Part shown: in pieces, positions 2,631 through 55,664 of the stretch
Numbering within the stretch: the stretch's first letter is position 1
Layout of the letters: the number at the start of each line of letters is the position of its first letter
IMG/VR virus record: IMGVR_UViG_3300045988_153208
Length of the DNA: 64,000 nt
Source of the DNA: a virus
Strand: one strand, 5' to 3'
Notes under the pieces: generated by a model
What the model was told of the DNA's origin: nothing
The model's database searches: none
What the model saw: the letters and a program-made list of their open reading frames with translations, nothing else
Translations under genes and position numbers: made by a program

Positions 2631-2693
2631 GCGGACAAAATTCATTAAAATGCTCTCTATTTCTCTTAAAAATAAGAGAAGGAGATGAAAAAG

Positions 2694-3389
2694 ATGGTTG
2701 ATTTAACAGGTCAAGTTTTTAATAGATTAACTGTATTAAAATTAGACACAGAACGAAAATCAAAAAATAAATATTGGATTTGTCAATGCTCTTGTGGAAA
2801 TATTAAAAGTATTTAGCATAGTAATTTAATATCAGGATTAACTCAGTCTTGTGGATGTTTACATAAAGAAAAAATTTCACATACCTTAATTGGTTAGAAA
2901 TTTGGTAAATTAACAGTTATAAAAGACACTGGAAAACGAACTAATAATAGAGGTATTATTTGGGAATGCCAATGTGATTGTGGAAAAATAACTGAAGTAT
3001 CTACAAATAATTTAAAATAGAATAATACTATGTCTTGTGGTTGTATGAAGCAATCTCACGGCGAATATCTTATTGAGACTATTCTTAAAACAAATAATAT
3101 TAAATATAAAAAAGAATATGTTTTTCTTGATTTATTATCTCCTAAAAATGGATACTTAAGATTTGATTTTGCTATTTTAGATGATTAGGATAATGTAAAA
3201 AAATTAATTGAGTATGATGGAGAAACACATTCAATAAATTATATGGGTGGATGGAATACAAAAGAAAAAATTAAATATCAATAGTTATGTGATACATTAA
3301 AAGATAATTATTGTGATACTCATAATATCCCATTAATTAGAGTTTCATATTTAAATAAAAGCAATGAATTAGAAAAATTAATTCTATAA
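2694..3389 (+). CDS. Putative endonuclease with tandem zinc-ribbon repeats and a C-terminal Vsr/PD-(D/E)xK-like domain. This is a homing-endonuclease-like insertion between dnaB and the primase.
   Basis: RBS AGAAGGAG precedes the start, and the frame runs to TAA 3387-3389 with 5 in-frame TAG codons. The N-terminal half has three repeats of FxxLTV...WxCxCxCG...SCGC. The C-terminus reads EYDGETHS...IPLIRVSY, typical of DUF559/Vsr-like nucleases. Confidence 0.5.
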
Positions 3390-19620: not shown

Positions 19621-20115
19621 ATGCTTGATTTTATCGCCAAATATTGGCTTGAGTTTTTATTTGGTATAATCGCATTAGGACTTACGGGTTTAGCTAAATA
19701 TTTTTATAACTTATATAAAAAAGAAAAATAGCGTTTAGAAGATGAAGCTCATGAAAAAATTATTAAAGAGTTAAAAAGTAAAATTAGTGATGAACATAAA
19801 ACTACAGCTAATTTATTGCAAACTGAGCGAAATTTATCTAAACAAGAAAATGATAGTTTAAAACAAGAAATTTATAATGTAAATGATAAAATAGATGTTG
19901 TAAGAGATGGCATTTTATCTATTTAGGGAAAACAATTTAAAAATGATTGTCGAAAATTATTAAATCCAGATCATGAAATCACTCTCGATGAATTTGAAGA
20001 AATTGAGAGCGACCATGAGACATATAATAAAATGAATGGAAATCACACGGGAGACAAACTATTCCAAATGGTAGAATAGAAATTTAGAAATAGTTTATCT
20101 ACTTATAAAGAATAA
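19621..20115 (+). CDS. Membrane-anchored coiled-coil protein
   Basis: The N-terminal hydrophobic helix (WLEFLFGIIALGLTGL) is followed by a charged coiled-coil region. It has three in-frame TAGs and ends at TAA 20113-15, followed by a terminator. Confidence 0.45.
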
Positions 20116-20120
20116 AAAAT

Positions 20121-20153
20121 AGCCGAGAATTAAATAAAACTTAATTCTCAGCT
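20121..20153. terminator. Bidirectional terminator between convergent genes
   Basis: Hairpin gagaattaa/ttaattctc flanked by A and T runs. It sits between + gene 19621-20115 and - gene 20163-20703. Confidence 0.6.
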
Positions 20154-20162
20154 TATAATAAT

Positions 20163-20703
20163 TTATTCTTCTATTTTATAATAATATTTTAAAAATTCAG
20201 GGCTAAAATCGTAAGCTAACCCTTCTGTAATCAATCCTTCAATCTCACAAATTTCTGCGGAAACATTTTTAATTAATTTTTTAGCTATTTTTAACTCATG
20301 GAATGCCATATTTTCTTTGAAGTGCATTGCAGCTTCTTTATAGATACTCAATGTTTCCTTCTCCCAATCGAGCCAATGGTAGAGACTCTCTTTACTTAAT
20401 GATTTAATAGCTCCCTTGGTAACATCCATAGATGTTTTGCTATACCATTCTGCTGGAATTAATGTTGTGTTTTCCATTTCAAATTGTGGAATTGAAAAAT
20501 ATATTTTTGCATAACAATCTTTAATACATTGAAGAGTTTCTAATTCTTCCTAAGATTGATGGCAATGGATTTCTTTTAAACCATCTAAACATAAAAAACG
20601 GTAATAGTCAGTCATATTTTCATGATAAACTACTCCCTCTGTTTGGCGTTTAATTATAGAAATCATATATTCTTGACAATCCATTCAACTCACCCGACCT
20701 TTA
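20163..20703 (-). CDS. Hypothetical helical protein, possibly ferritin-like or heme-oxygenase-like fold
   Basis: Track ORF 20163-20477 extends upstream through one TAG to an ATG at about 20703 (MDCQEYMIS...). It overlaps the stop of the upstream gene. It has His/Glu-rich helices. Confidence 0.4.
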
Positions 20704-21112
20704 TGATATCGACTTCAACAGTTGAATAGGTTGTTGCACCAGTGTTAACAAATGTCAAATTGGCATTGTTATTTATAGAACGACATGATGGCAGGACTTT
20801 TACTAAGGTAGTAAAATGAACTGTACCAGTGTCAACTAGACTTGCAATTGCGGCTGGAATGGCAGTTCCATTATTGTAAGCCTAGACTGAAAATGTGTTG
20901 CCAGAGCCAGCATTACCAGTTGCGGTTACCGCAACTAAATAAGTGCCGGTTCGAGTTAAACTAATCGCAGTACTGCCTGCAATATGAGAAATACCACAGC
21001 CACTTTGGAATATATTATTTTGGAGTGGAATGGGATTACCCGTAGCAAGAGTCTAGCTAGTTGTAGAGGTAGTCTTTAAAATTGGGTTAGAGCAATTTGA
21101 ACAAGTACTCAT
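20690..21112 (-). CDS. Small Ser/Thr/Gly-rich beta-rich protein, possibly C1q/TNF-like (BclA C-terminal-domain-like)
   Basis: RBS AAAGGAG precedes ATG 21110-12. The frame is open through three TAGs to TGA 20690-92. The sequence is dominated by S/T/G/N/A with beta-strand-like segments (TGTYLVAVTATG...TVHFTTLVKV). Confidence 0.4.
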
Positions 21113-21169
21113 TCGTATGAACTCCTTTCTTAGTTAGAATAGAGGGAGGATATTTCCTCCCTCAATAAA

Positions 21170-21469
21170 TTAATTACCGCAAGCTCCGCATCCACTAAAT
21201 GCGCTATAAATATTACTTGCAGTATAAGGACTACAAGTAATATATGCAGGGGTAGGATATGGGCGTAAGACATTCAATAAATCAGAAGTCTGATTCATGT
21301 TCTGAATTGTTAAGTTGGCAGACTGTAATTCAGTACGCAGACCTTCAATCTTATCGGTAGTTAAATAATCAAGAATACGCTGAACACCAGCATTTTGATT
21401 AGTTTTGAGATTGAGAATAATAGTTATAACTGTTTGGATACATTTTCTAGAAAATACCTCGCTTTCCAA
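21170..21469 (-). CDS. Small protein with a coiled-coil middle and a Cys/Ser/Thr-rich C-terminus
   Basis: Intact 99-aa ORF. The C-terminus reads TPAYITCSPYTASNIYSAFSGCGACGN. The tandem palindromic operators lie immediately upstream. Confidence 0.45.
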   Translation of the reverse strand: MESEVFSRKCIQTVITIILNLKTNQNAGVQRILDYLTTDKIEGLRTELQSANLTIQNMNQTSDLLNVLRPYPTPAYITCSPYTASNIYSAFSGCGACGN

Positions 21470-21484
21470 ATTTTTTACAGCGGA

Positions 21485-21518
21485 GTAAAAAATTTTACAA
21501 TGGTGTAAAAAATTTTAC
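21485..21518. promoter_or_regulatory. Two tandem 14-bp perfect palindromes (candidate dimeric-regulator operators) in a divergent promoter region
   Basis: GTAAAAAATTTTAC at 21485-98 and again at 21505-18. Centre-to-centre spacing is 20 bp. A half-site AAATTTTTTAC sits upstream at about 21470-80. Confidence 0.6.
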
Positions 21519-21633
21519 TAAGCTCCTCCATTATATAATGTAAATTAAGATGGACCAACTAACGATTTTTGCCTGGTTATTTTCGAAAAAACTATCTAGA
21601 ATATTTTTCATATTAAATAGGAATTGACATTTA

Positions 21634-21662
21634 TTGACTTTTCCAAAAATTTATTTTATAAT
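21634..21662 (+). promoter_or_regulatory. Sigma70-like promoter
   Basis: -35 TTGACT at 21634-39, a 17-nt spacer, then TATAAT at 21657-62. A second overlapping TTGACA sits at 21624-29. Confidence 0.5.
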
Positions 21663-21690: not shown

Positions 21691-22104
21691 ATGGATTGGC
21701 TAGAAATGCTACAACAAATTTTCAATATTCTTATTGTCCCAGTATTAACAGCTGTCTCTTTATTCTTGGTTCGTTTTATTCAGTCTAAAACCAATGAATT
21801 GAAGGCTAAAACCAATGATGAAACTCTTCAAAAATATATGGACATGCTTAATAAAACAATTACTGATTGTGTATTAGCAACAAATCAAACATATGTTGAA
21901 AGTCTGAAGGGGCAAAATGCATTTGATAAAAATGCTCAATTGGAAGCATTCAAAAAGACTTATGATGCCGTAATGGGTATTCTGACTGAAGATGCTAAAG
22001 AGTATCTTGAGGAAGCCCTCGGTGATTTGAGTGGATATATTACCACTAAAATCGAGTCTGAGGTTAATACAAATAAGGCTCAACCTAAAAAGGCCAAAGA
22101 ATAA
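21691..22104 (+). CDS. Small membrane protein (N-terminal TM helix, charged C-terminus)
   Basis: RBS GAGGAGG precedes ATG 21691. The track start at 21634 lies in the promoter. It has one TM segment (ILIVPVLTAVSLFLV). Confidence 0.45.
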   Translation: MDWLEMLQQIFNILIVPVLTAVSLFLVRFIQSKTNELKAKTNDETLQKYMDMLNKTITDCVLATNQTYVESLKGQNAFDKNAQLEAFKKTYDAVMGILTEDAKEYLEEALGDLSGYITTKIESEVNTNKAQPKKAKE

Positions 22105-22530: not shown

Positions 22531-25500
22531 TTAAAATACTTTAATCCATACACGCCCATTAACTTTAACTTTTCCAGTTCCCCATTCTTCATAATCAGGA
22601 ACAGCTGAAATAGTACCAATCGCGCAATAACCTTTATTTCTATATTCTTCATCAGTCATAATAGAAACTGTTCCATTAGGACCAGAACATACTGGACGCC
22701 CAATATTCTTTTTAAATTCTTCACGAGATTCATATGGATAAGCAAGAACACGTCCACTTACTGCTATTGGAGTTTTTGCCTATTCAGTTTCACCAATAGC
22801 AAAACCAAATGTATCAGATGTAATATTTGCACCGGGCATCATACGTTCAGTTGAAGTAATAAGAGTATCATTACCAACTTCAATTACGCATCTACCTGAT
22901 TCAACAGTATCGCCTTCACGGAATTCAGCATAGTCATTCCATACAGCACCCCAAAGTTTATTTCCTCGTAAAACTCCAGTTCGAGTATTAATAGTCATTG
23001 TCATGCCAGCATTAGTTGAAGGACATCCATCAACAAAACCAATACTCTACCAAGATTTAAAAATTAAATTGGCTTTTCCAGTAGTCCCTAAAATACTACC
23101 ATCTGCATCTCCATTTCCAACATACATTCCATTATTTCCACCAACTAATCCATGACAAATCATTGCTCCAGTATTAGTAGCAGTTGATGTAGTGGCGGGC
23201 AAAGAACAATTAATACTTCCATTCATAGTTCCGCCAGATAATTTTAAATAATTAGTATCAATCTATAAACCATTTATATCTCCCAAAGTTTTACTAGCAC
23301 TATCAGCATTACCATGAAAATAAACATTAGTACCATCACTTTGAACTATCCACTATGTTTTAATACAATCCCATAATCCATATAACTATGCGCCACCATT
23401 ATCGCGAGATAATTCGATATAACCAGTTGAGCCATTATTTACTCGGAACCCCTATCCAGCCTTATCAACAGCCAATTGACCAGTCATTGTATCTCCGGTT
23501 TTTTTGACATAATTAGAATCATGATTGTGTGAACTTGCTGCTGCTCCAATATTAGCTGGAGTTATATTAATATTTTTAGTAGCACTACCATTATAAGTAA
23601 ATTGGTTTGTTCCTTCAGTAGTTCCACTGTTTAGTTTAATGACTAAATTATTATTAACTTTATCGGCACTACTAGCTTTAGTAGCCGTTGTTGCAGTGGT
23701 CGCATTACCGTTTAAATTACCATGAAATCCATCAGGCTTAATGGAAGCAACTAATTTTCCATCAGCCGCAGTTCCTTTAGTATTTTCATAGAAATTCCAA
23801 ATTCCACCATATTCATGAAAATCAACTTGATTATGTCCACTATATCCAAAATCAATAGCATGATAATATGTATCAGCATTGCCTTCACCACGGAATTTTC
23901 TACTTTGAAAATAATGAGTTTTATCAGTGCCCGTGGCAATATAAGGAGCAGTAAATAATCCAGTATTATCAATAGTAACTTTTGGATTATCTTTAATGAC
24001 TTTACCTGTTGCATCAGCGAATGTGGAAACAGCATTTACAGTAGAAGCATTAGGTCCTGTTACCGCATTTGTGCCTGCATCATCACGCCAACCAGGATTA
24101 CCTTTTTCATCAGTTTTCCAAACTTTATTTTTTTGATTAGCTCCAGAAGCCACATAGCCTTCAGATGATGATGTATTAGCTTTCCAAGTATTTGTATTAG
24201 TGGAGCTAATTGTGATATTACCGCTATCATCACTTACTACTGATGTTGCTCCAGTGCCTTTAATAGTAACGCTATTTCTAACTGTAGTATTATCTACTAT
24301 AGTTAATTTAGTATTACCATTAGTAGTAGCAGCATTTTGAGCAGTACCAGTGCCAGCATATAAGTGAGTTGTATAATGTGTATCTGTAAATTTAGCATCT
24401 GAGGGCACTGATTTACCAATAGTAAATCCAGAGTCTTTAATTATTTTACCATTAGCCCCATTGAATATAGCAACGTGATTATTAACCGCGCTAACCGGTC
24501 CAATTACTGCTCCATCAATATTAGTTTGAACAATAGTCCAATCTCCTGCGCTATGAGTAGTTCCATCTTTAATACAAATAATTAAATCGCCAATTTCACA
24601 AACTTCACCATTGCCAAGGTATTTACCATTATTACCACCTTTAATATCATAAACGCGATAAGTTTCACCCGCGTTATGTTTGGCTGGTAATTCATGAATA
24701 GTAGCAGCTGCATCTCCACCGATAGTACCTTTAAATACCATAGCATCATTAGTGGCTAATAAATTATTTAATTTCTTATCAATATCTGATTTTATATAAA
24801 AATTATTTAATGACCAATCATGTACTGCGTCACCCCGTGCAGCAGCATATTGGTATAAATTGTTTCCATAATTTTCCCCGGCTTCACCAGCTTGTAAAAT
24901 TACATGTCGACTAGCTTTATAAGAATTATCACCATCATAGTTAATATATAAATTATCTTTTTCACAAGCCCCGTCATCTGTTGGTTCTGATATACCACAA
25001 ATACCACGAGTCACTAAACCCGCATTTTGAGCAGTTCCACTAAATACTGCCCCCTACTATAATGTAAGTTGATTAGAAATTATAGTATTTATTTTATTAG
25101 TACCAAGGATATTAGCAGCATCGCCTTTAAAAATATGAGTACCACCTATTACAACATTTCCTTCAAATGATGCGCTACCATTCATATTTAAAAGAATATT
25201 ATTGTTTATATTAATACCCCAATTATTTACTAATGATTCTTCACCAGTATTTATAATTTTAATACCAGTGCCAGCTCCTTTATTATCAATAATTAAAGCC
25301 GAGCCTTCATCATTATTTTCAATTAAAACTTCATCTTTACTTCCTGTTTCAACATTAGGAATTACTAATGTCCCATCTTTATAACCAATACTACCATATT
25401 TTAATTCAATTAAATTTTTAGTATTGTCAGCTACTTTGAATGCTAAAATAGGATAAGTTTCTGTATCTTCAATTTTAGTAGCCTTAATCCAATCAGTGCT

Positions 25501-25683
25501 TAAAGCACTAAGAGGAATACGATTATCTCCAATTACAGCTGGAGATGCATTAGTACCATCACCATCAATATCAATGTAAAATTTACCATCATCTGATGTA
25601 AAATATGCAAAACCTTCTTTTGCATATGGTACATTTGTCATTAAATTTTTTGACAAACCTTTACTTATTTTAAATAATGCCAT
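22531..25683 (-). CDS. Long tail fibre / receptor-binding protein (about 1050 aa)
   Basis: RBS AAGGGAG precedes ATG 25681-83. A single frame was checked codon by codon from 25683 down to TAA 22531-33, with at least 9 in-frame TAGs (25057, 23452, 23386, 23353, 23263, 23047, 22780 and others). It merges track ORFs 25057-25683, 23452-25014 and 22780-23004. The sequence is Gly/Thr/Asn-rich and beta-rich. Its N-terminal anchor module and C-terminal domain are shared with other genes in this module. Confidence 0.7.
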
Positions 25684-26616: not shown

Positions 26617-26656
26617 TAAAAAGGCAGATAACATAATTTGTTATCTGCCTTTTTTT
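26617..26656. terminator. Bidirectional terminator
   Basis: Perfect 12-bp stem aggcagataaca/tgttatctgcct flanked by A5 and T6 runs. Confidence 0.7.
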
Positions 26657-27524
26657 ATTTTATTTTAATCCAAATTCGATTATTGATTTGAATTTTATCA
26701 GTACCCCATTCTTTATACTCAGGAATTTCACTTACATAACCAATTATAGCATCAGGCCATTCTTTGATTTCTTCACGAGTCATTAATGATATAGTTCCAT
26801 TAGGTCCTGAGCAAACCGCCGCGCCAGCAGTAAATTTATATCTATCTTCATAAGGATAAGCTAATACTCGTCCACATACCGCAATAGGTGTTTGTGCTTT
26901 ATTAGTTTCACCAATAGAAAAACCAAATGTATCTGAAATAATATTGCTACCCAGCTGTAAACGCTAAGTTGATAATTCTAAGTCTCCATACCCAGTTTCA
27001 ACTACACACCGGCCAGGCTCTTTAATTAACGATTCACGATATTCAGCATAATCATTAAATACAGCACCACGAACTTTTTTAGCTACTAAAACTCCATTAT
27101 CACCGTTTTTTGTTTTACTACCATCGCCTAATACTAAATTCTATGATCGATCAAATCCTTTAATTAATACGCTCTATTTCAAAATATTATTTTCTTTAAT
27201 ATTAAACATACCTGGAGTTAAATTATCATTTTGAGTTAAATTAGTTTCGGGGGAAAAACTTAATTCACCGGTAATAATATACTGCTTATTTAATACATCA
27301 TCATCAGTCGGATCTTCAATAATTAAGTAGGTTTTATTACCATCTGGAACAATTTTTACACTTCTTACATTCTAGATTTGTAATCGCGTACCATCTTTAT
27401 TCGGACGAAGACGAATGCCAGTTTTTTTACCTGCAACTGGATAAGCTTTTATATTAGCAAGCATTTTATTTAATGCTTCATTTTGTAAAATTATTGTAGA
27501 CTCATAAGGTGAATTACTACTCAT
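26655..27524 (-). CDS. Tail spike/fibre protein whose C-terminal domain is paralogous to the C-terminus of the long tail fibre (289 aa)
   Basis: ATG at 27522-24. The frame is open through four TAGs to TAA 26655-57. The C-terminus [77 protein letters not shown] matches fibre residues encoded at 22531-23000. Confidence 0.6.
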
Positions 27525-27612
27525 TTTTCGTGTTCTCCTTTCTCTCATAATTTTATATCTATTTATTATAGAAAATTATAATAAATCATTATTTATATTT
27601 ACCCAAAAAAAT

Positions 27613-30340: not shown

Positions 30341-30556
30341 TTAAACTTCTTTCCACTAATCTAATTCGTCTTCTGGAATAACTACATTTTGAACAAAGTC
30401 TTTTCCATTTTTAGTAAGACGTTTATTATTATCAGCAAGTAATTGAAGTTTTCTAACATAATATATATCTTCAAGATGAATGGGAGAAAGAATCGTTCCA
30501 TTAGTACCTAAATACTCATACATTACAATTTTAGTCATTTTCTTTTCTCCTTTCAT
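30341..30556 (-). CDS. Small protein (71 aa) translationally coupled to the giant tail protein
   Basis: Its ATG overlaps the TGA of the upstream giant gene (ATGA). The frame continues through TAG 30356 to TAA 30341-43. Confidence 0.45.
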
Positions 30557-33500
30557 GAATTAATATAATTAATTTTATTAAATCCTGAGAATAGTGAATT
30601 AGCAGCGTCTTGTTTCAAAGTAGTATACCAATCAACTGATTCTATAGTAATTGCAGACCAAGAGGCATAGTTAATAAAGGCTGGATCGCCAGATACGATA
30701 CGCAATTTAGATTTTTCTTCTGGTGTACCAATAATAATCTTTTTAATACCTAATGTTCTATCACTATTTAAATCACTATAGCTAGAGAAAGTAAAACCAC
30801 CATTATCAATCTTCTAAACATTAGAACCAATAGTTAAGGTATCATTATCTCCAGAGAATGTATTTTGGAATGCGCTTTGATTGATTACTGCAATTGTACC
30901 ACCAATACTTACATTAGAGAATTTTGGATATACTACACGAGATTGACAACCAGGCATTTTAAATGCATAGTCTCCAATCAATCTTAATCCTTCAGGGAAT
31001 TCTACCCACACTAAGTTCATTGAATGAGAGAAAGCGGCACCACAGAAAAATCTAATATTACATTTTTCAACATCATTTTCTTTATATTTTTCAAAGAATA
31101 CATGAGTTAAATTTTCACCATAGCAAACTGGAACATAAGTAACAGAATTTAAAGTAGAAGATTTTCCTGGGAATCCTGGATTACGAGGACTGTCAATATC
31201 TGTATCATAAATATCTCCAGGTGAACCGAATGTCGCATCAATAGCAATAACTTTTTTAGATACTCCATCTACATTAAAGAATGCTGGCACTGTAATCTTT
31301 CCTTTAACTTTTTTAGTCAAAGCTAAAGTCACGCCATCTGTAATATTCCACTTTGTCTCTCCTGCCCAGTCAGTATAGTAAGTATCTGCGGGAGTGAGAC
31401 CAGAGGTCTATTCAGAAACTGCAAAATACTCTGGATGAATATCTTCATATACATTAATAGGATTATTATCAAATACTGCATAAAATGTAGTATCCTCAGT
31501 AATCATATATTCTTCTAATTTCATAGCAGAGGAAGCAGTTGCAGAACGACTATATCCTAAGAATTTATAAGTTTGTTCTAGTGGTAAATCACTATCATCT
31601 TTCCAAGGAATAATCGTAGACATTACAGCGTAATTACCATGAGGAATTTTCTTTTCTTCAATTAATGTATTATCTTTATAATAATATTTAACACTCCATT
31701 TATGAATAGGACAAATTGCATAGAATATATAAGTATGGATACTAGAATCAAGAGTTTGTTCGCTCCACTTATTAATACTTTTATCAATATTAATAAGAAT
31801 ATCAGCACTAGCAGAATTAGTTAGTGCCCAACCATAGAAATCATGATTTGGTTTCTTCTCACTAACATCGCCAAATGCATCAATAGGATCTGCAAACCAA
31901 GTTTCGCCCTCTTTTAAAGTCATAGAACCAATTAATTGATAACGACCATCATTACCTTCATCTTCATCCATAATTACAAATCTAGCAGTATATCCCTGTT
32001 CAACATTCGCACAGAAGATTGTTAAATCAGGATAAGCAGCTTGGATAGTATTACGTAATTCAGATTCTTTAATAACTTCTGTATTATTAATATAAATAAT
32101 ACCAGAAATATCAGGAATATTTTTACTAGAATTTTTAATCCATTTCTTATCACTAATAAATTCTTTAAACATAGCTAAATCAGTAATTTGATTTATTTTA
32201 TCTTCTGGGATTGTTTCATCCTTACGATAAATTTCACCATTTTCAACTTTAATAGTCCATGCATCAAAATTAGTATAAGTGTAAGGTTCTAGTCCATAAT
32301 GTCCATTATCTATATAATAAGTAATAGATGGATTACGTTCATCATCAACAGTCATCTAAACATATGGACACCAATTCACATTGGTCATAGAAATTTGAGA
32401 AGTATTAGTCTATTGACTACGGATAGTATAATATTGTTTTAACAATTTATAACTATCATAGCCTAAGCCACCACCAGCAATATTTAGAGAAGCAATTACT
32501 GTATCACCCTTATCTCCAGTTGAGGTTTTATCAAAGAAACCTTGGAGGTATAAACCAGGATTAGCATGTAAATTACCTTCATCATCACGGGTAGGATTCT
32601 AATATTCATCTTCAGTAATTATATTCTTTAACAAATTAGCTTCAATTAATTCAAGATTTGTAATACTAGTAGGTAAATATACAGTATTTAATGCGACGCC
32701 TTTAGCAAACTAAACGTTAATTAAATTAGAACCAGTAGCACGGAAATCCTCTAATTTTTCACAACTAGTTAAATCTAATATAGGAGAAGCAGCATTAAAC
32801 TGAATATTACTCATATTTACTTCTTTTAATAAAGGCATACCTTTACTATCAGAAGAACTGGCAGGAATACTGAATTGGTTAACATTATCATTATGCCAAC
32901 GCTCTCCATTTGTATCTAAACCATCATATCCTAATTTCAAACTAGTTAATTTAGTAGCATCACCAGAAATTTCAAACTCTTGCCAATATAGATTACTCAT
33001 ATCGCCAAGGTCTTTCATTTGATTAATACCATAAACATATAGTAATTGTTCAGGATAATTTTCACTCTTACGGACACCATTTTCAATAGAGTCAATATTA
33101 AATCTTAATGCATGAACACCATCATATTTACGAGAAGGATAGGCTTCATTATCATCACCAAGAGTAACATAAGAAGAATGGGCTGGAGTTAATGTCATCC
33201 AATATTCAGCATCAAATAAATGATTTTTAGTCAAAGTGCTTTCATCCTTGAAATAAGGATCGCTAGCAGTTTCAATCCATTTATCTGAAGTCTTATTTTT
33301 ATTATTCGCAGCAACACGACCACGGATGCGGTTCGCACCACCACGTTGATAGTTACCTTCATTTAACCAAGAGTCAATATACTCTAAACGATTAGATAAG
33401 AATTGTTGACGAGATAGGCTTCTATTTCCTTGTAAAGCATAGAAATAAGTACCATTAGTATCAACAGTATATACACCAGTTGTATCACTGCTAATATGTC

Positions 33501-36500
33501 CAGTAGTACCATCTAAGTAAGAAGCATCATTTGTAATAGTGATATATTTATAATATTCATCTAAGTTAACTGCTACCAATGGACGAGTACCCAAGTCAGC
33601 TAAGTTATTTGTTGTATTATAATCAGTTAAATAATATGATTCAATACGATCAACAGTTTTTAAAGGTGGCTGTTTTAAATTAGAACCAAATACACTAGTA
33701 GTAATACCGCGTAAATGTCTGTATTTAGGAATAATTAAACCAGTTTTAAAGTATTTATAGAAGTTATTCCATAAAACACTATCAGAAGTAGAATAGTTAC
33801 CATCTTCAGTAGCATCAACATTGTATTCAAATGAAGGAATACCAGTATTATTAATACCTAATTGAGTATCAATATCATAGAAAATTGGATACCAAATATA
33901 GTCTCCGCCTTTCTTTTGAGGACCCCAAGAAGCCATCATACAGTTTTTACCACGAGAGTCATAACATTCAAAAATTTCTGTCATAACGAAATATGTAGCC
34001 ATATATTCTTTATCGAAGTGGTCACTTAATTCATAAGTAAATTTATCACCACGATACTCTTGTGTGTCATATTTATAAGAGCGATCACCATAAATAATAG
34101 TGGTTCCAATATAATATTTATTTGGCTCATAAGTTTCAGCAGTCACAGTAGCTTTAGTTACTGCTTTACCACATTTAGCGTTTCCATCATAATTATAATA
34201 TGTTTTACTTGCATCAAATGCTTCATCTTTACATAAAACAACTAATCTATCAGCCTTTGTATCTAACTCTTCATCGCTATAAGATTCCAAAGTATAATAA
34301 CGTTTATCGGGATTAAATGTATCAGTGCTATAACAAGGAACATAGGTAATATTATTATTTTTATCAATTTCACCAGTATATAATTTAGTTTTAATAGCAC
34401 TAAATAATACTGTTCCAACATAAGCAACGATATATTCATGACTATTTTCTTGATTAGGATTATAGTCAGGATTCTTTTTATAATAAGTAGTGCCTTCTAT
34501 ATATTCTTTAGCTAAGGTATAAATCTGTTCAGAAGTTGATGGATTAGTTGTCATAATATAATGTTTATTACTATCAAATAATTCTTCACCAACATCACAG
34601 ATTTTATAAGTACCATTTGATACAACTTTTTCAGTACAAGTACTCCAAACCCAAGCTACAGCGCGTTCCCAATTAGAATAATCTTTCAATAAATGCTGAG
34701 CGCGATTTTCTTGATTTAATGTAATATCATCCTTAGAAAATGTTAATGTTGGGTCTTTCTTACATTCTCCATCAGGAGCCATAATATAATCAAGAATATC
34801 TTCGTCATTATGATAACGATATTCAAATGAGTCTGCTACCACAGGGGCAGATTGAACTGCATTTAATACACGAGAACCATCAGCATTAAATACATCAAAT
34901 TTCAAATCTTTGCGGTCTTGTGGGTCACGATATGAGCAGAAGGTACGGCTATTGTTTTCAAACTCCCAACATTCTGCTACTTTAGGCATACTCTTAGTAC
35001 CATCGCCTATAAATTTAGCTTTTGGATCTTTACCAGTAGTGCTGTCAAGTGCGAATCCATATACTTCATCAGAACCTTTATCTAAAAGCATATTGTATAT
35101 ACCAATAAATTGATAAATAGGCTCTGTGCTACCATCGACTGGTTTCTTTTTATGGAATGCAAGTACACGGAACCCTCGTACAGAAGTACGATAATCATCA
35201 GTATTTTCAACCTTAAAATCGCTGTATCCAGGTTTCATAATATACCATTTATTATATTTAGGATTACTTGAATCAGCTACTTTTAATTTTGAATAAACAG
35301 TTGGATTTTCAGCCATTAATTTTTGATATAATGCGTATGGACCTAAATCAAAATCTTCTTTGCTGGTAATCACAATATTATCTTCTAAGACTTCATTACT
35401 TGCTGTTTTCGGATTACCCTTATGATTATAATAAGTATAAGTAGTTCCAGGAACATACTCAGTTGTTTCAGTCTCAACAGTTTTGTCAGGGTCTAAAACC
35501 TAAAATGCTTTTGCATTATTATAATCGTCTAATGGATGTTTAGAATAAGCATTTTTAACCATATTTGCAAATCCCATATTATAAGTTCCAGAAGATTCCA
35601 TGTAGTCAATCTTCATAGTAAATTTATGAGTTCCGCAAGTATAATTATTAAAATACCAATATTTTTGACGAGTTTTTTCATTGCCACGTTTTACGTAAGC
35701 AGTATTTTCAATATAAAAAGTATTAGGTTTATAAGGATTAGTTTCGCTAAATGTAACTTCCTTTTCACCATTTTCATCTTCATAATATTTAATTTTTAAT
35801 TGGCCAGTAGCAGAATCAACTAGAGGACCTAATGTTGTACTTAAAATATAAGGCTTCTAAGTAGAACCTAATACATCAGCATTATACTATTCTCTGAATG
35901 GCCCACGGTTTAAGAAAATGTTAACACGCTTTTCGCCATCTACCGCATCGTTATTTTTAGTTTTAACTTTATAATTTCTACGAGGATAGAATTCAGATGA
36001 AGTTCCTTGAACGCTCATTGATGCGCTATCACTAATAAATGAAGGACAATGATATTTATAATAAGTTTCAACAGCTTTTTGTTTTTCAGCTGCTGTCGCA
36101 CCATCACCAAATAATTTATCAGCTTTAGCTAATTCTTCCAATTTACCTTTATTATAATACATTTCAAGTGGAGTATTAACAAATTCAACTCCAACATTTA
36201 ATTTAACCTTTTTAGAATAAGGAAGTTTATTTTCACTATCTTCTAATTTAGTAGTATCAAAAATAATATAAGGCATTAATGGGGCATCAGGATGTTCATT
36301 ATTATACTTTATCATATTAGTATAGCTAAATTGGAATTCATCAATAGCAGTATTTTCTTCTGCTAATTTATTTTGATCGTAAATATTTACATTCTCAAAA
36401 TCAGCAGCATAATTCATGACAATATCATTAACGTTTAAATCAGTGCGATATACTCGGACCTTATATAAATCAATATCACAGTAATCACTGTTAAATTCAA

Positions 36501-38715
36501 TTTTATCATTTTCTACAACAAATCCATTTTCTTGAGTGTTTCTAACAACACTAGTTAGTACACCATTTAAATAAATATAAATTAAATTTTGAATTTTTTC
36601 TTTACTATATTTACATACAACAGATAAAGTAATAATTTTATTTTCTACATAAGATACGTTTACGGTATCAGTACCATTAGAGAAAAACGCATCCTGTGGT
36701 CCTAAACATAAACCAGTAACGGCTTTAGTATTACCAGAAGAGTAACTACCTATAACATTACTTAAATTAATTTGCTTAGCAATATGACTAAATTCTAAAT
36801 CATCATATTCCATTCTACGTTTATTACCATTTTTATCGACAAATTCAACTTCATAAGTTTTTAAATACCAAGCTAAAAATGCATCATAGTTGGTGTATGT
36901 AGTATTAAATTTGCCAGTTTCTTCATCATAAAATGCTTTATATAATTTTTCATCATTTTTATAACGAGTAATAGTACGAATTAAATTTGAATAATCCTAA
37001 ACATTACGAATTTTGAAAGTTAATTCAATACTATGAGACTGCTCAGTAGCTTGAGAGCCACTAGGATTTGAAAATACAGTGCGACCAATAGGAATAGATA
37101 ATTTAGCACCATTACTAATACGTAAACAAGTTTTATTATCTTCATCCGTAGTCCAACCATTATTATACCAATTAAAATTAGTAAAAGTCGCCGCACAAGG
37201 TTCAGCCCCTAGAGCTGTAGAAGAATTTACTAAAGTAGTGCGTTTAGCCAACGTTTCAGAATTAGAACGTCCACTACCTACTGTGTTTAATAAATAAGTT
37301 AAGAAGCCTTGCTTCTAAATACCAAAGTCTGTTCTTGTTGGGTCATTTACAACACGAATTTCAATTTTACGGGTAGTCTCACGCGCTCCATCACCACAAG
37401 TAATAGTGTAGTGATTAATTACATTTAATTCAGGATTAGCAATTTCAAAAATAGCAAATTTCTTAGAATCTGTAATTGTTTGAGGAGAATAAGAAAGTTC
37501 AATATTATTACGTTTAAAATGCACTACTGGGTTTTCAGCCTATGGGTCAAAAACACGGAAAGGAATTTGAATAGTGTCATAATTATAATATTCATCTTTA
37601 TAGTCTCCCAACCAAATAATTGGAGGAGCTTGAGGGTCTAAACCATCATAAACAGCTACTTCAAAAATTAAAGGGTCAACTTCAATTCCTTTTTTGCCAT
37701 TAATTGATTGGAATAAACGAATCCAAACTTTATGATAACCATTAACTACAGGGATATATTGTGAAACATTAACAGTCTATAATGTAGCCGAATTAGCGGC
37801 TAAAGATACACTTAAAAATGGTTCATCTTCATTGTCAAAATAATATTCAACAATTTTATCCATAGCGCCATTAACATTACATTGTAATACTAATTTACTA
37901 GGCTCGAAATAACTTAAATTAGAAAAACTACTTGATTCTTGTAATTCTAACTTAGAAGTTTTAAATGTTACTAAACGAGTAACTGTGCTTGGATGATTGG
38001 TTTGACTAGCCACTAATACTAATCTTGAAGAAGCATCGTCTTTAGCCAATTTACCAAATTCAAAAGCATATTTTTCGCCATCAGGCACTTGGAATGTTCC
38101 TGAATTATATTGGTTGTAATTGGTGCCATCATCAGTATATTCTAACTTCCAATTAATTGTTAGAATAGAGTCATAAGAATTACCCTTTTTATTTTTAGCT
38201 GATGTGGCGACAAATGTTATTTCTTGAGAACGTCCATTAATTAAGTTAACAGTAGGTAATGAGTCTACAGTTAATTCAATATCAGAAGCTAATGAGCTAG
38301 GGTCATCTCCTCCCCCTCCACCAGCAACAGTTAAACGACGACATAGCACATTTTGAAATGCTCGCTGAACTTTTATTACACGATAAAAACAATTATCACC
38401 TAAATTGATAATTAAATCATCTTCTTCGGGATACTCTCCGCCTTCAATAGCTCCGATTGGAATATTGATTTCATCTTCTAGTTTTTCAGCATCAGTCGGA
38501 GTATAATTGGCATAATAAATACCAGAATTACTTCCTGAGCCACCACCACTACCGCTTCCTAAAAGCTTTCGTGATACCATTGTACCATCAGCTTGAGTAT
38601 AGTCTATGAAAATTTTACCAGTATCAACTGCAAAATAAACATATCCATCATTAAAACCCATTAAATCTAATTTAGCTTCAGTACCACGAACAGGGATGAA
38701 TCGTTTATTGCTCAT
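30553..38715 (-). CDS. Giant multidomain tail fibre or baseplate protein (about 2720 aa)
   Basis: RBS AAAGGAG precedes ATG 38713-15. Track ORFs 37777-38715, 37315-37524, 36997-37251, 35887-36813, 32710-35373, 31408-32355 and 30814-31332 are all in one frame. Every gap was scanned and contains only TAG, no TAA or TGA. The first true stop is TGA 30553-55. The N-terminus carries the shared fibre anchor module and Gly/Ser linkers. Confidence 0.65.
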
Positions 38716-45562: not shown

Positions 45563-48373
45563 TTATAGCAATCTTGGAGGGGCTTTTGTAGCCACTACAG
45601 TCATCATACCATTATGATTTAACTAAATGGTAATTTTATTTAAAATATATTCTCCATGTATATCACTTTTATTATCATCAACTGTAATAATTGTATTTGG
45701 TTCTAAATAATAAACAGGGACAGATTTTAAATTTATTTTTTCATTCAAATAAGCATATTGATATAATAAATTATTCAATTCATCATATGTTGTTTTACCC
45801 TAAGATGAAATAACAAATTTATCTTCATACATTTTAGGTAATGGTATATAAGCATATCCATCCTATAATAAATTTTGTTTCTAATATAAGCTATATTTTT
45901 CAGGACTAATATAAATTATATTAGGAGTATCCCTATAAATAATAGATTTAATAGCATCATTATTAACAATTTTCGGCCTATCTCCAATAGCTTTCACAGA
46001 GTACTTGCCTATCGTACATTCTGAATCTTCTATAAAATCCATCCAAAATTCTAATGTAGAAGGGTCAGTAATATATTTTCTATTCCATCCATAATACTCT
46101 TTTTCATTATCTGGTAATGGCATCTACTCCTCAGGTTTTTGTGGATTCGGCATGCCAACAAAATAATTTTTATAATCAGTTGTTGTAGGATTATATATTT
46201 TTCTCCAATATGCTAATAAATCAGCATAATAACTTTCATAACCAGTACATCCATTTTTAAATTCTGGATTATTTTGAGTTAATTTTACTGCATAATCATC
46301 ATTATGTCCATATTTCTCATAATCTAATGCCATTTGATAAATTAATTCACGCCAATTCTATTTTACATAATACTATGTATTTTTATCTTGGTCTGGCATT
46401 ACTGGCTAATACACATAAGCCTTGCCGCCTTTTTGATACAAAGGATCAAACCAACTTGCCCAGGGATGCGTACACATAGAACCATGTCCAGTATATCCTA
46501 TACTACCATCTGACAATAAATCAAAAACATATAATTTTTTATTTTCCCAATCATTCCACTAACCATAACTTGAACTGCAGGAAGTGCCATAAAATTTTTT
46601 CATTAACTCATCATTATGGCATTCACCATAAAGAGAAGCAATATCTATATTTACTCCTCCATTTTTCCCATCATAATAGTCTCCCAGCTCTCTATCAGGA
46701 TACTATCCTAAATATAACTTATAAAGTTCAGCCCAGTCTTTAACATCCCACCATTGTTCATCAAGAGCAGTTCCCTATAAAGTATCTTTTGGATTAGGAG
46801 TTTTTACAAATTCTCCAGTTTTTAATGGATCATAAGAACGATAAACTCTTCCATCAATTGTAGTATATTTTTTAGGTTTTTCATCAATAGCATATCGTAA
46901 ATGAATGGGTACGCCTTCACTATTCGCAGTAGTTGGATTCTTTTTGCCCCAAATCATAAAATTATTTTTTATTTTAGAAAAATCAGGAGTATGCTAAAAT
47001 GAAGAAATTAAAACATTATCTGAAAAATTATAAGAACTTTTTGAAGCTAACATTGCAACTTCTGCATAAATCTAATTATAAGTATACTAATTATCATGCT
47101 TTTCATAAATAGAATTTAATTTTTCATCTTCTTCAGGATTAACTGAATCTGTAGTTTTTATCATACTAGTCCAAGACTAATTTACATAAGTCCGCTTTTT
47201 CTAAAAAACAAATTGTCCATCAAGATTATAAAAATATTCATAATCTCCAAAAGTAGAACAAATTTTATCAAGCACTGAAGTGATTGTATCTCCTACATTA
47301 ACTACCAAACCATCTTCATCAGGCCAATATAAATCTACTGCTCGATATCCAGCCGTACCAGTACCACTAATTTTAGAAACATAATATCCTATTTTATCAT
47401 TAGGACTATCTTTTACTTTAGTTTTAAAAGTATTTGAACCAATTTCAGTTAATTCACTATCTGTCAATTGATTTAATTGGACTTTTTTCCCAGTAGTAGT
47501 ATATTTTGTTAAAGTTGTATCAAAAGTAATATTGACATAAATACCATTATCATCTAAAAAAGCATAAAAATCACCATCAGTATATCGTAATAATTCTAAA
47601 CCTTTATCATCAACATCTTTAATTAAAATATTATGAAAAGGCTCATTTCCATAAAAATGGATCATTTCACGAATAATATATGTGATAGGACGTCTTATTT
47701 TTTTATATTTTTTAATTTCTCCACTAATACTATCTTTAACTTCAACAATACCCAACATTAATTCATTATTTTGCTATTCGGTTAAATATGCTATACCTTC
47801 ATCAGTTAAATATTGAGTTTCAGTATTTTTATCAATTCTCCAATGCAAATTTTTTATTAAATTATATTTTACAATTAATTCAGATACATTTAAATTTTCT
47901 TCATCATATTCAACTAATTCTATTGCAAAATCAATTGGATTAGGAAAATTTCCTCCAATATCACCATTTAATAAACACATTTTATCTTTCCCTGAAATAG
48001 CAATTTTACATCCAGTAGAAGTAAGTGTTGTATTAAAAGCAGTAATTAAAAACATACCTTGCGGGAACCAAATTAAATCATCATAATCAGAATCAATATT
48101 ATTAATTAGGCCAATATAAAGATTAAATTTAGTTGTTAATCCCCAATATACATCAGTAATATTTACTCCTTCAGATACTAATTGTACTGAACAAGAACGA
48201 CGAACAGCGGAGGACCCATCAATATTGATGGATCCTCCAGAAGCTTTGCCTTCAATCGATTCAACAGGTTCTTCATCTTTATTTAAACTTACAATTTTAA
48301 TAAAAACTTCTTTCTAGTTGTCTAAATCTAACTATTTCAAAAAATGAGTATCTAACAAAGGATTATTTTTCAT
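45563..48373 (-). CDS. Tail protein (about 936 aa) with a Cys/His-containing putative hydrolase-like region
   Basis: Its ATG overlaps the TGA of the upstream giant gene (ATGA). Track ORFs 47774-48055, 47201-47758, 46775-46957, 46124-46333 and 45881-46123 are in one frame. The gap 46334-46774 was checked and contains TAG only. The gene ends at TAA 45563-65. It carries the motif GHGSMCTHPWASWFD. Confidence 0.5.
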
Positions 48374-51300
48374 TGATACATACCCGCCTCTATCTCTTTA
48401 GTAAACCCTCTATCGAGAGCTAATATAAATTTATTCCAAGCATCTTTTACTGCTTCAATTAATTCACGCATCTATTTATCTTTTGATACAGTATCATTAA
48501 TATCATAATAGTCATAAAATCGTGTTGATAGGAATCCTCTAAAAATAGTAAGATATTTTTCATATTCAATCTAATAATATTCAGCTTTTGTTTTATAATT
48601 TTCTTGTTTATTAGTGTAAATAGTAATTAAAAATTCTGCCTATTCAATCGCGTCTTTATAAGCATTTATATCTTTGTTTAAAACATTTTCAATATACCAA
48701 TAAAAAATTCCCATACTTGTAATTGAAGAATAATTTTCATTAGGGTTAGATAATTTAGGTAAATTAGTAAATAATTCAATTAATAATGGATCAATTCTAT
48801 ATTCATTAAATAATTGAGTATTACACCAATAGCACAATTCTGAAATTTTTGCCAATCCTTTTAACATTAATAAATGCTGATATCTTACTTCATTAATAGT
48901 AGGATTTGTTTTTGAAATATTTACCTTATATTCTGACAAATTATTTAAAGATTTTATTTTATCCTAAATAAAGATTTTATTGCCTAAAGATTTATAACTT
49001 CTTAATAGAGTGGTATATAATCCATCTAAATTAGAATTATATAACTCTAATACTGATTTTAATGTACCATAATCAGATAATGCATTATCTCCACCAGTAT
49101 TATTAGAAATAAAATTAGAACGTGTTTTATAAGTATAATTTATAATATTATCAATAATATTACGTTCAGGATGTTTTTTAATATCTTCACTATCACTTTG
49201 ATTTTCTTCACTTAAAACAGTAGAAATAAATTTATTATTAGAATATAAATTAAATGTTCCCTATTGTAAATTAGCAAGTTTAGTAGCAGTTAAATATGGT
49301 TCAATAAAATTATAATTATTATTTTTCTAATCATTCGCTGATACTGCTAATTGATTAAAATAATCAATAAAACTTTTTATTAAATAATCTTTTTCATTCA
49401 AATAATAATCTACATTTAAATCATAATTATTTAAAGTAGCTTGTTTATAAAAATTATTTTCTAAATAATAATATTTTCCCAGAGTTAAGAAAATATCATT
49501 TTTTTCAATTTTTCCTACTAATTTATAGGTTGAAGTATTTATGCCATTACTAACCAATAGCTATTGATAATTTGTAATAGTAGAATTATAATTAGTTATT
49601 ATAGTATTAGCATCTAATAAACGAGAAAATCCAGTATTCATATAATTATTTGTAGCATTTGGAGTAATTAAATCAATAATAGCATCTAAAACATATTTAT
49701 ATCCATTTTCTTTTACTGGTAAACAGGTATTATCAATAATATATAATAGTTTATTAATTTTAGCTATACGAATATTAGTGGCTTCAAGATTATAAGTATT
49801 CTAATCAAATTCAATACTATTAAAAATTGAATTATCTCCTTCATCTAAATTATTTCCTTCAATATCTAAAATAATATTACGATTAGAACTAGATCGAATA
49901 GTACTTTGTATAGAAGACCCTAATTTAGTTATATAAGAATCTGAATATTTACGATTATTCTTCTCATAATAATAGAATGAATATAATAATCGATCTCTAA
50001 AAGCTAAACAATATAAAAGATCTCTTTTTCTATCATTCCACCAACCTGAGAATGTAATAGATTTCTATAAATAATAATTTAACTTAGATGATAAACTAGT
50101 ACTATCATTTATAATTAAATTAGGCCAATTTAATTCTTTTGCTGACTAACAAACATAATCTAATTTATCTGCCGCTAAAATAAATTTAATAATAGAAGAA
50201 CTGTCTTCATCTTCCAAGCCATTCTATTCAGTACCGCCTTGTAATTTTAAATTTAAGGCAGTATAATCAGAAGCAATAGTATTTCCTATATCAATTAAAC
50301 TAGATACCTAAAATAAATCCTTTAGAGTATCCATATTGTCTAAATCAATTTTAGTATTTTTTAATTTCTCAATTAAATCAATACAAGCATCAAAAGGATA
50401 TAAAAAATTATCATTATCATCAGTGCCAATAAAATTAATAAATGCTTTAGTATCAGAATCTAAATTATCAGTCTATCCTAATAATTTATTTAAATTTCTA
50501 CGAGATTGTTTTAAACGTCCATAATACCATAAAATTTCATGTATGCCACCCAAAACTTTTTGATATAATAATTTATCTAAAGCATCATCGTCATCTTGGT
50601 CTTTTATAATAGCTAAATATCCTATTATAGTATCATATAATCCTTGAATAGAAGTCCAAGCATCAATATAATAATTCATTTGAATCCGGCGCGCCTCAGC
50701 TTCAGAAGTATTAGTGCTACCTAACCCTGCTGAAACTCTATTATAATGATTTTTTATATTAGTTAAAATCTCAGTAATATTAATTGAAGATTCAATTTGC
50801 TCAAGATTATCTTTTATTGAATTATAATTAGAAGAAGTAACATTTGTTAATTGATTAGCTATACTCTAATAAATTAAACAATATAACCACAATGCTGCTT
50901 TATATCTATAAACAATTGCATTATAACCATCATCAGTAAGAGTTTGACCATTTTTATCAGTGATTTCATAAATTTGATTTAATAAACCACCATAATCATT
51001 CGCAATTGAATTAGCATTTTCAATAGCAGAATTCTAATTATTATAAAGAGATTGTAATAAAGAATCTAATTTATTTAATTTAGAATTAATACCTTCTTTA
51101 GTCGGCTGCTAAATTAAATCTAATAAATCCTATTCTTCTTCATCCTATAATTTTAATTCAGTATACATACCTTTATTTATCTACATTCGCTTAATTGTTT
51201 TTAATACTTCTTTTTTTATTTCAGCTTTCTTCTCTTCAGTAATATTATTTGACCATAAATCAACAATATTAAAATTCTTTAATGCTGCTGGTTTCATAGT

Positions 51301-55638: not shown

Positions 55639-55664
55639 AGTCATTCTCCTTTACCACATAATTA

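Follow-up and report, generated by a model that had tools for sequence, protein, structure and literature searches.

A probable remnant of a five-gene accessory cassette beside the holin gene of a phage that reads TAG as glutamine

What is the minus-strand island that interrupts the plus-strand genes of the phage sequence IMGVR_UViG_3300045988_153208 (IMG/VR), a stretch of 64,000 nucleotides with about 30% GC that is referred to here as the window? The first-pass annotation described it as three genes forming a self-contained accessory cassette behind tandem, perfectly palindromic operators. Minus-strand coding at 20163-21469 inside plus-strand neighbours was confirmed, and the observation is partly supported: it is real in outline and a separately regulated, variable accessory cassette holds, whereas the genetic code, a gene stump and the symmetry of the palindromes had been misread. 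Our analysis suggests that the locus is probably a decayed copy of a five-gene phage accessory operon, A146-B68-C225-D140-E173 (genes A to E with their lengths in amino acids, aa), cut by a 1-kb deletion. Open reading frames (ORFs) B and C of the first-pass annotation correspond to genes D and E of this operon.

In the standard genetic code, the only open ORFs on the minus strand between 20163 and 21469 are of 104, 44 and 99 aa, separated by single TAG codons. Of gene E this code leaves just a 104-aa piece open, and of gene D nothing. When TAG is read through, 20163-20684 encodes 173 aa (one TAG) and 20690-21112 encodes 140 aa (two TAGs). Over the whole window, treating TAG as a sense codon brings the stop-to-stop ORFs of 100 aa or more to a total of 67 kb, up from 42 kb, and joins minus-strand gene fragments beyond 22531 into ORFs of up to 2,720 aa, and in four of six comparisons TAG sites of the window correspond to CAA or CAG in more distant relatives. 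Because of the rise in ORF cover, the fusion of minus-strand fragments and the alignment of TAG with CAA/CAG, the phage is concluded to read TAG as glutamine (genetic code 15). Two of the three genes previously annotated, now D and E, are open through TAG read-through only, while the 99-aa ORF is no gene and the cassette is a five-gene unit that is truncated here, with the following parts:

20163-20684, minus strand: gene E, 173 aa, divergent ferritin-like helical protein; in-frame TAG at codon 45 (20550-20552)
20690-21112, minus strand: gene D, 140 aa, stand-alone TNF/C1q jelly roll similar to BclA-C/ExsF, with a CxxC peptide at its N-terminus; TAG in frame at codons 20 (21053-21055) and 77 (20882-20884)
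21146-21163, minus strand: GC-rich hairpin between the gene C stump and gene D, GAGGGAGGAAATATCCTCCCTC on the minus strand
21170-21403, minus strand: stump of gene C, its last 77 codons and stop, with 96% identity to the C-terminal end of P0028 and of the L001 and L002 genes of 225 aa
21399-21443, minus strand: 14-codon stub of gene A (MYPNSYNYYSQSQN, then a stop) that holds the deletion junction; native ATG at 21443 with a GAGG Shine-Dalgarno

Relatives 95-98% identical to the window, some of 195-200 kb, carry five genes of 146, 68, 225, 140 and 173 aa between the holin gene and the terminator. By blastn, exactly 1,000 bp of this region are missing from the window, its segments matching positions 618-2709 and 3709-6112 of the relative L001, collinear on both sides at 97-98% identity and with a clean junction at approximately 21401-21405, at short microhomology of the CAAAA(T/C) type. 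A deletion at this microhomology would have removed gene A from codon 15 on, all of gene B and the first 148 codons of gene C. The remaining frame of C is not that in which gene A starts, and it happens to stay open upstream to a TTG at 21469, giving the 99-aa ORF (21170-21469) whose first 22 codons are the start region of gene A in the wrong frame. This TTG has no Shine-Dalgarno sequence, whereas D has AAAGGAG and E has GGGTGAG. The only database relatives of the 99-aa ORF are longer proteins with other N-termini, and its Cys/Ser/Thr-rich tail is the conserved C-terminus of 205-250-aa proteins with a predicted membrane segment. To judge from these alignments, the 99-aa ORF is a product of the deletion and its real part is the C-terminal stump of C, which is out of frame with the gene A start and probably not translated. 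Genes D and E are probably still expressed, since they are intact and lie downstream of the operon promoter and leader. For annotation this means that the standard code hides two genes here and that the most striking ORF, the Cys-rich "peptide", appears to be a deletion artefact.

The first-pass annotation had instead proposed an intact three-gene cassette in which the 99-aa product is a peptide precursor or DNA-binding protein and a dimeric repressor acts on perfect palindromes. It is true that the ORF is open for 99 codons, that its C-terminal motif is conserved and that the clade of the window does carry conserved tandem repeats. However, the wrong-frame start after the 1-kb deletion, the TTG lacking a Shine-Dalgarno sequence, the origin of the tail in membrane-segment proteins, the absence of a modification enzyme in or near the cassette and the imperfect palindromes make this version highly improbable, and comparison with L001-L007 largely refutes it. 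Specifically, no maturation enzyme for a ribosomally synthesized and post-translationally modified peptide (RiPP) was found in the cassette of any relative or nearby in the window, where the sole radical-SAM gene is an NrdG-type activase adjoining nrdD. A RiPP precursor or small-peptide module was rejected, the ORF being a 3' fragment of a 225-aa gene with no such enzyme.

The junction of the window occurs in no other assembly among the IMG/VR and Joint Genome Institute (JGI) metagenome contigs, which weighs against a natural deletion and makes a misassembly possible. If the 1-kb gap were an assembly artefact, the real genome would carry all five genes, and the short repeat at the junction would suit this explanation as well. 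On the other hand, both flanks are collinear at 97-98% identity around a clean junction, and an independent natural deletion was found at the same place in three other contigs, so that we regard an artefact as very unlikely. This second deletion (L020 892-1287) spans 878 bp; in the resulting in-frame fusion, residues 1-77 of A are followed by the final 54 of C. Its independence indicates that the upstream half of the cassette has been lost repeatedly in nature, and the variability among relatives, which the first-pass annotation had set as a question for comparative genomics, is seen in two independent deletions. Both variants retain the cysteine-rich C-terminus of C together with genes D and E, and such natural deletion variants show which parts of the cassette are dispensable. 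As a broken copy, the feature of the window matters little on its own, and the lead is rather the intact cassette, five genes of unassigned function kept in fixed order in hundreds of gut phage genomes of differing size and type.

The distribution of the cassette was assessed in the best 80 of 227 IMG/VR contigs carrying a relative of C, with the following counts:

A: 74 of 80 contigs
B: 75 of 80 contigs
D, BclA-C-like type: 57 of 80 contigs
D, alternative small Cys-rich type: 22 of 80 contigs
E: 62 of 80 contigs

The genes lie on one strand and in one order in these contigs, and the two types of D never occur together, one or the other being present in 79 of the 80. The genomes hosting the cassette range from 30 to 200 kb, and its recurrent neighbours are tail and virion genes, a holin and two small membrane proteins. 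A 77-aa sigma-region-4-like regulator stands immediately upstream in 37 loci. Relatives of C were also found in 39 deposited phage records, including those of six Clostridium perfringens phages; no nucleotide similarity between the window and deposited phages was found. In the C. perfringens phages CPD1 and XP41-N3 the order is A-B-C-D-...-E, with an endonuclease-type gene (CPD1_038) inserted in CPD1, and since these phages are cultured the function of the cassette is genetically testable. The order is also seen in L013 and in part of 24 genome or metagenome-assembled genome (MAG) contigs, and it is kept in Dulem virus 36, where the cassette directly follows a receptor-binding protein gene. 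In a crAss-like phage (cr1_1), a relative of C lies near a gene annotated 'putative pholin'. Because the order is kept and the cassette is found in very different phage genomes, we conclude from these comparisons that it is a conserved, mobile unit of unassigned function, usually situated beside lysis genes. With its own promoter region and terminator, it agrees with the self-contained accessory cassette that the first-pass annotation had proposed.

Regulators of the sigma-70-region-4/DUF1492 type, 76-97 aa long, were seen close upstream of the cassette and often directly so (L023, L024, L025, L027, L030 and others). The clade of the window has no sigma-like gene at this position and carries the 20-bp repeats there instead. 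In a further ORF of the window, 2685-3389 on the plus strand (234 aa, five TAGs), a Cys-rich N-terminal module that is also present in CPD1_038 (blastp 1e-10 to 1e-12) forms a tandem pair. CPD1_038 is probably a mobile endonuclease-type gene.

Much in this arrangement recalls phage morons and the accessory cassettes that adjoin the lysis module in phages of Firmicutes. The cassette comes with a promoter and a terminator of its own, its direction of transcription opposes that of the neighbouring genes, unrelated phage genomes carry it at different places, and the recurrence of the deletion indicates that it is dispensable. In contrast to morons, it comprises five genes in fixed order across more than 200 phage contigs, often has its own sigma-region-4-like regulator upstream and has no assigned host-benefit function. 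An anti-defence module had also been suggested, but PADLOC gave no real matches for seven cassette proteins, and a defence or anti-defence system was rejected on this basis.

Gene C, in its intact form, encodes 225 aa with an acidic N-terminus, a single hydrophobic 19-mer (residues 33-51, Kyte-Doolittle 1.66), a long stretch of helix and, at the C-terminus, a conserved PYT...GCG-CG motif. It matches PHROG 16490 (phrog_16490; E 1e-29), annotated 'unknown function', and apart from phrog_16490 no family was found for the three products of the window in Pfam, NCBIfam or PHROGs. Profile searches of the PDB with A, C and the alternative type of D gave nothing below E 0.06. The structure and profile searches proposed for the products in the first-pass annotation were rewarding for the other two, D proving to be a BclA-C/ExsF-like jelly roll and E ferritin-like.

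The AF2 model of gene D has a pLDDT of 85. The best Foldseek match was the C-terminal domain (CTD) of F-BclA (9h38; E 4e-11, TM 0.76-0.80), and 9h38, 3twi, 1wck and 7r1m, BclA and ExsFA included, were matched at E 4e-11 to 7e-8 and TM 0.70-0.80, followed by C1q and TNF-family domains. The model is a ten-strand jelly roll superposable on BclA-CTD or ExsFA. Pfam PF18573, with a gathering threshold of 38 bits, did not match D of the window at E <= 1, and the homologues P0027 and P0023 scored 31.9 and 29.3 bits. Gene D thus resembles the BclA C-terminal domain and ExsFA/BxpB of the Bacillus exosporium (PF18573, TNF/C1q superfamily) in its fold, and ExsF in being a small stand-alone domain with a short N-terminal peptide. 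It differs from them in lacking collagen repeats and an exosporium leader, in sequence scores below the Pfam threshold, in being phage-encoded (also in contigs binned with non-spore-formers) and in its N-terminal CxxC; its assembly into a trimer is suggested only by analogy. As the exosporium leader and GXY repeats of BclA proper are missing and about 25 residues precede the jelly roll, gene D has the BclA-type fold but is no BclA orthologue. Neither D nor E has a signal peptide or membrane segment, and neither contains a hydrophobic segment like that of C. Stand-alone proteins of about 135-145 aa with the gene D fold are frequent in gut phage genomes, and nothing on stand-alone phage BclA_C proteins was found in the papers that were searched. 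A spore-specific role, which the fold might suggest, is weakened by the presence of C relatives on contigs binned with Treponema, Gastranaerophilales, Mycoplasmatota, Phascolarctobacterium and Bacteroides, host bins of phage contigs being unreliable in either direction.

Gene E belongs to a family of 298 representative clusters. A 60-sequence profile of this family matched ferritin 3kx9 in the PDB at E 5e-5 and in register across both helix pairs, profile positions 18-61 aligning with residues 23-66 and positions 101-164 with residues 88-151. The structural model is all-helical and of low confidence (pLDDT 57); with it, Foldseek retrieved almost only ferritins and bacterioferritins, the best at E 0.1-0.7 and TM 0.35-0.46. 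The Pfam Ferritin family (PF00210) did not match E of the window type, and two of 60 family members matched it at E 0.003. The ferroxidase di-iron ligand set consists of E...ExxH twice. Gene E conserves the acidic residues E47, E108 and E144, which correspond to metal-ligand positions, and H21 is invariant, while the His of the first ExxH is not conserved and is Thr in the protein of the window (QEELETL). By these profile alignments gene E is ferritin-like, with any metal chemistry suggested by analogy. It is in register with archaeal and bacterial ferritins and keeps acidic ligand positions, but unlike ferritin and bacterioferritin it falls under the Pfam thresholds, does not conserve the ExxH His and has the invariant His21 in place of a ferritin tyrosine. 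The likeness, which comes from the sequence and a low-confidence model, does not imply a 24-mer or iron storage. The cassette pairs a fold otherwise known from spore surfaces (BclA/ExsF) with a ferritin-like protein.

The surroundings of the island bear on when its genes are used. It had been placed inside an early module, but it lies at the border between a plus-strand replication block and a minus-strand structural block, beside the holin gene, with the following neighbouring features:

21691-22104, plus strand: holin gene (phrog_13712, E 5e-33)
21634-21662, plus strand: divergent promoter of the holin gene, TTGACT-17-TATAAT, 11 of 12 matches, invariant in relatives
20121-20153, no strand assigned: hairpin terminator common to the cassette and the convergent gene 19621-20115, with a stem of 15 pairs and then, on the minus strand, ATTTTTTATT (T-run)

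The near-consensus plus-strand promoter was correctly recognised in the first-pass annotation. The bidirectional terminator is likewise real as a 15-pair hairpin with a T-run between convergent genes, although it bounds one end of the island only and does not bracket it. The convergent gene 19621-20115 (plus strand) encodes 164 aa and contains three TAG codons; its product has a membrane segment at the N-terminus, a coiled coil and weak PHROG matches to Rz-like spanins. Together with the holin gene at 21691-22104, this gene places the cassette between two lysis-type membrane proteins.

Per 1,000 codons, TAG occurs 4.0 times in the replication block on the plus strand, 9.5 times in the island and 12.3 times in the structural block on the minus strand. 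The TAG usage of the cassette therefore resembles that of late and structural genes and is unlike that of the early block; the density of the island comprises three TAG codons only, which counts against placing much weight on it. The cassette genes would then be translated only after a switch of the phage code, that is, late. Earlier work described gut phages of about 200 kb that recode TAG, in-frame TAG being concentrated in the structural genes of recoded clades (bioRxiv 10.1101/2021.08.26.457843). The window compares well with such TAG-to-Gln (code 15) phages, as its relatives are gut-sample contigs of about 200 kb and TAG is densest in its structural genes, but it differs from them in having no suppressor tRNA within the 64 kb: no tRNA gene, suppressor tRNA(CUA) included, was found in the 64-kb window of a genome of about 200 kb. 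Read-through ORFs of 2,720, 2,424 and 1,644 aa are present on the minus strand at 30553-38715, 48370-55644 and 58678-63612, with 13, 41 and 30 in-frame TAGs, respectively.

How might the intact cassette work? We speculate that C would sit in the membrane via residues 33-51 and form a helical stalk ending in the conserved GCG-CG cysteine motif, that D would form TNF-like trimers docking on C through the cysteine-bearing N-terminal peptide and that E would be a ferritin-like partner in the C-D assembly. The docking step is modelled on ExsF and BclA-type docking; partner peptides are bound in clefts between subunits of ExsF trimers (PMC12357932). This mechanism is possible but doubtful. In the window, where the anchor of C is gone, the cassette would be at best partly functional. 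More broadly, A-B-C-D-E may constitute an undescribed, widespread phage system, a membrane-anchored and cysteine-linked TNF/C1q-like trimer with a ferritin-like partner that would be switched on late in infection by a regulator of its own and act on the host envelope. IMG/VR contigs that carry it number at least 227 and extend from phages of 30 kb to recoded phages of 200 kb, and cultured C. perfringens phages have it as well. We consider this view, too, possible but doubtful; if it were true, the action on the envelope could concern egress, the timing of lysis, the exclusion of other phages or a remodelling of the surface. Several points weigh against these models. The docking of D on C is a proposal by analogy, Pfam, NCBIfam and PADLOC return nothing for the five families and all PHROG matches are of 'unknown function', and hhalign did not establish homology between the two types of D (probability 65% over 22 columns).

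Two more ordinary roles were considered for the cassette. It could be a structural module whose products belong to the virion, D forming the head of a fibre or decoration and C the stalk that bears it, given that TNF/C1q-like heads are common on phage fibres (PRD1 P5, collagen-repeat proteins, a Bacillus phage receptor-binding protein), that the cassette of Dulem virus 36 directly follows a receptor-binding protein gene and that TAG usage is like that of structural genes. Yet the same cassette occurs in genomes of 30-200 kb, with structural matches to D from phages labelled myo-, sipho- and podovirus, it usually follows lysis genes and a sigma-like regulator, it includes a ferritin-like and a predicted membrane-segment protein, and it has been lost by deletion in two otherwise intact-looking lineages, which leaves a virion role unlikely. 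Alternatively, the cassette could be an accessory to lysis or egress, with C as a holin regulator or spanin-type membrane protein. A holin and/or endolysin gene adjoins it in the window, L024, L027, L029, L061 and L090, the relative of C in cr1_1 is near the 'putative pholin', and the layout of C, an N-terminal membrane segment and a long helical domain with cysteines, is one that we take to be like that of T4 holin T and Rz. No cassette protein shows sequence or profile similarity to any lysis family, however, a site beside lysis genes is the usual place for unrelated accessory genes, and it is not obvious what D and E would do in lysis, so that we consider this explanation improbable too.

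There remains the question of the repeats upstream of gene A, where these features were identified:

21465-21518, no strand assigned: imperfect inverted repeat GTAAAA-NN-TTTTAC in three copies phased at 20 bp (R3 at 21468-21478, R1 and R2)
21523-21558, minus strand: probable cassette promoter, -35 TTGGTC (21553-21558), 17-nt spacer, -10 TATAAT (21530-21535) and GGAGGAG (21523-21529)
21442-21455, no strand assigned: perfect 14-bp palindrome ATTTTCTAGAAAAT between the Shine-Dalgarno GAGG (21457-21460) and the gene A ATG, invariant in close relatives

The sequence GTAAAAAATTTTAC is present exactly twice, at 21485-21498 (R1) and 21505-21518 (R2), 20 bp apart, and R3 is an inverted partial copy of 11 nt, giving site centres at 21471.5, 21491.5 and 21511.5; Tandem Repeats Finder reports a period of 20 with 2.3 copies. 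Copy number and spacing had been read correctly, but the sites are not perfect palindromes, because GTAAAAAATTTTAC (GTAAAA-AA-TTTTAC) has 6-bp complementary arms around a non-symmetric AA centre and hence two mismatches to its own reverse complement. The R1/R2 pair is the sole exact 14-mer repeated within 14-40 nt in the window, and at least one such pair arose in 7% of 100 third-order Markov simulations. Over R1 and R2, none of 28 columns was variable as compared to 38 of 220 in the rest of the intergenic region (nine relatives not chosen by the motif; Fisher p 0.007, which is optimistic since the relatives share descent), changes inside the repeat block being located in the spacers and the third copy. 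The exact 14-mer was found nowhere else in the window, and in two related contigs (101 and 166 kb) only this pair was present among the matches listed. With up to two mismatches, one further site was found in the window, at chance level (4.6 expected). A regulon of the 14-mer was rejected, as no further sites above chance were found in the window.

TTGGTC-17-TATAAT is the only plausible minus-strand promoter and is proposed as the probable cassette promoter. Within the clade its -10 element and GGAGGAG hardly vary, the exception being one relative with A in place of the first G, and a GGAGG-like element directly after the -10 is also found in L010 and L011. The repeats had been placed between the promoter of the island and the plus-strand promoter, but they lie downstream of this -10, and this position puts them in the predicted leader, between GGAGGAG and the gene A Shine-Dalgarno. 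Transcription would start just downstream of TATAAT (21535-21530) and run through the three GTAAAA-NN-TTTTAC copies before reaching the gene A Shine-Dalgarno.

We tentatively read the repeats as a DNA operator array: a dimeric DNA-binding protein specific to the clade would occupy sites on the same face of the helix and block elongation or initiation. Such an array is similar to lambda OR1-OR3-type tandem operators in its three related, imperfectly dyad-symmetric sites, two-helical-turn spacing and divergent promoter region, and differs from them in that the sites lie downstream of the -10, have an asymmetric dyad centre and are absent from more distant relatives with the same operon, with no repressor found. 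Alternatively, the repeats may act as RNA, R1 and R2 pairing into a 5'-terminal stem-loop beside the conserved GGAGG that stabilises the mRNA or tunes translation of gene A; 5' stem-loops and STAB-SD elements stabilise Bacillus mRNAs. R1:R2 forms the main hairpin of the predicted leader fold (-19.4 kcal/mol, z = -2.84), beginning at the predicted 5' end, and the GGAGG-like element of L010 and L011 is also consistent with this role. All variable columns among 15 relatives fall in loops or bulges, and in one case a G-C pair becomes G-U. On the other hand, R1 is copied directly in R2 rather than complemented, which leaves an all-A/U stem with a central UU.UU mismatch, no compensatory change is seen, the boxes never varying, the 20-bp phasing of three sites is needless for a hairpin, and the transcription start on which the fold depends is itself predicted. 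The direct copy, with its central RNA mismatch, and the strict phasing lead us to favour protein-binding DNA sites, and an RNA element seems the less likely of the two; the remainder of our confidence goes to the repeats being neither.

The DNA operator reading has several points against it. The -35 element is weak, variable and under the promoter-scan threshold, the repeats are downstream of the -10, and every substitution in close relatives is at an unpaired position of the predicted RNA hairpin. No cognate DNA-binding protein was found, a Pfam search of nine plus-strand ORFs giving helicase domains only. Moreover, the repeats are absent in L010 and L011, which have all five genes at 69-88% protein identity; as their leaders are shorter, the sequences suggest a tandem duplication in the clade of the window. 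The dimeric repressor operator of the first-pass annotation is supported insofar as the sites are more conserved than their surroundings, and weakened insofar as an RNA hairpin fits the data equally. Likewise, absence of the palindrome from genomes with the same genes, which had been named as counting against the proposal, is seen in L010 and L011 while close relatives keep the repeats.

A few further observations were made. The perfect palindrome ATTTTCTAGAAAAT before gene A is one that we take to resemble a CodY box with one extra base, and related ATTTTC..GAAAA palindromes are present at 21578-21609. In the more distant relative L010 (9048-10975), a GIY-YIG homing-endonuclease gene adjoins a shortened nrdD of 410 aa, as compared to 756 aa in the window. 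Finally, the tail-fibre-like ORFs at 22531-25683 and 26655-27548 (minus strand) share a C-terminal domain of 155 aa at 55% identity.

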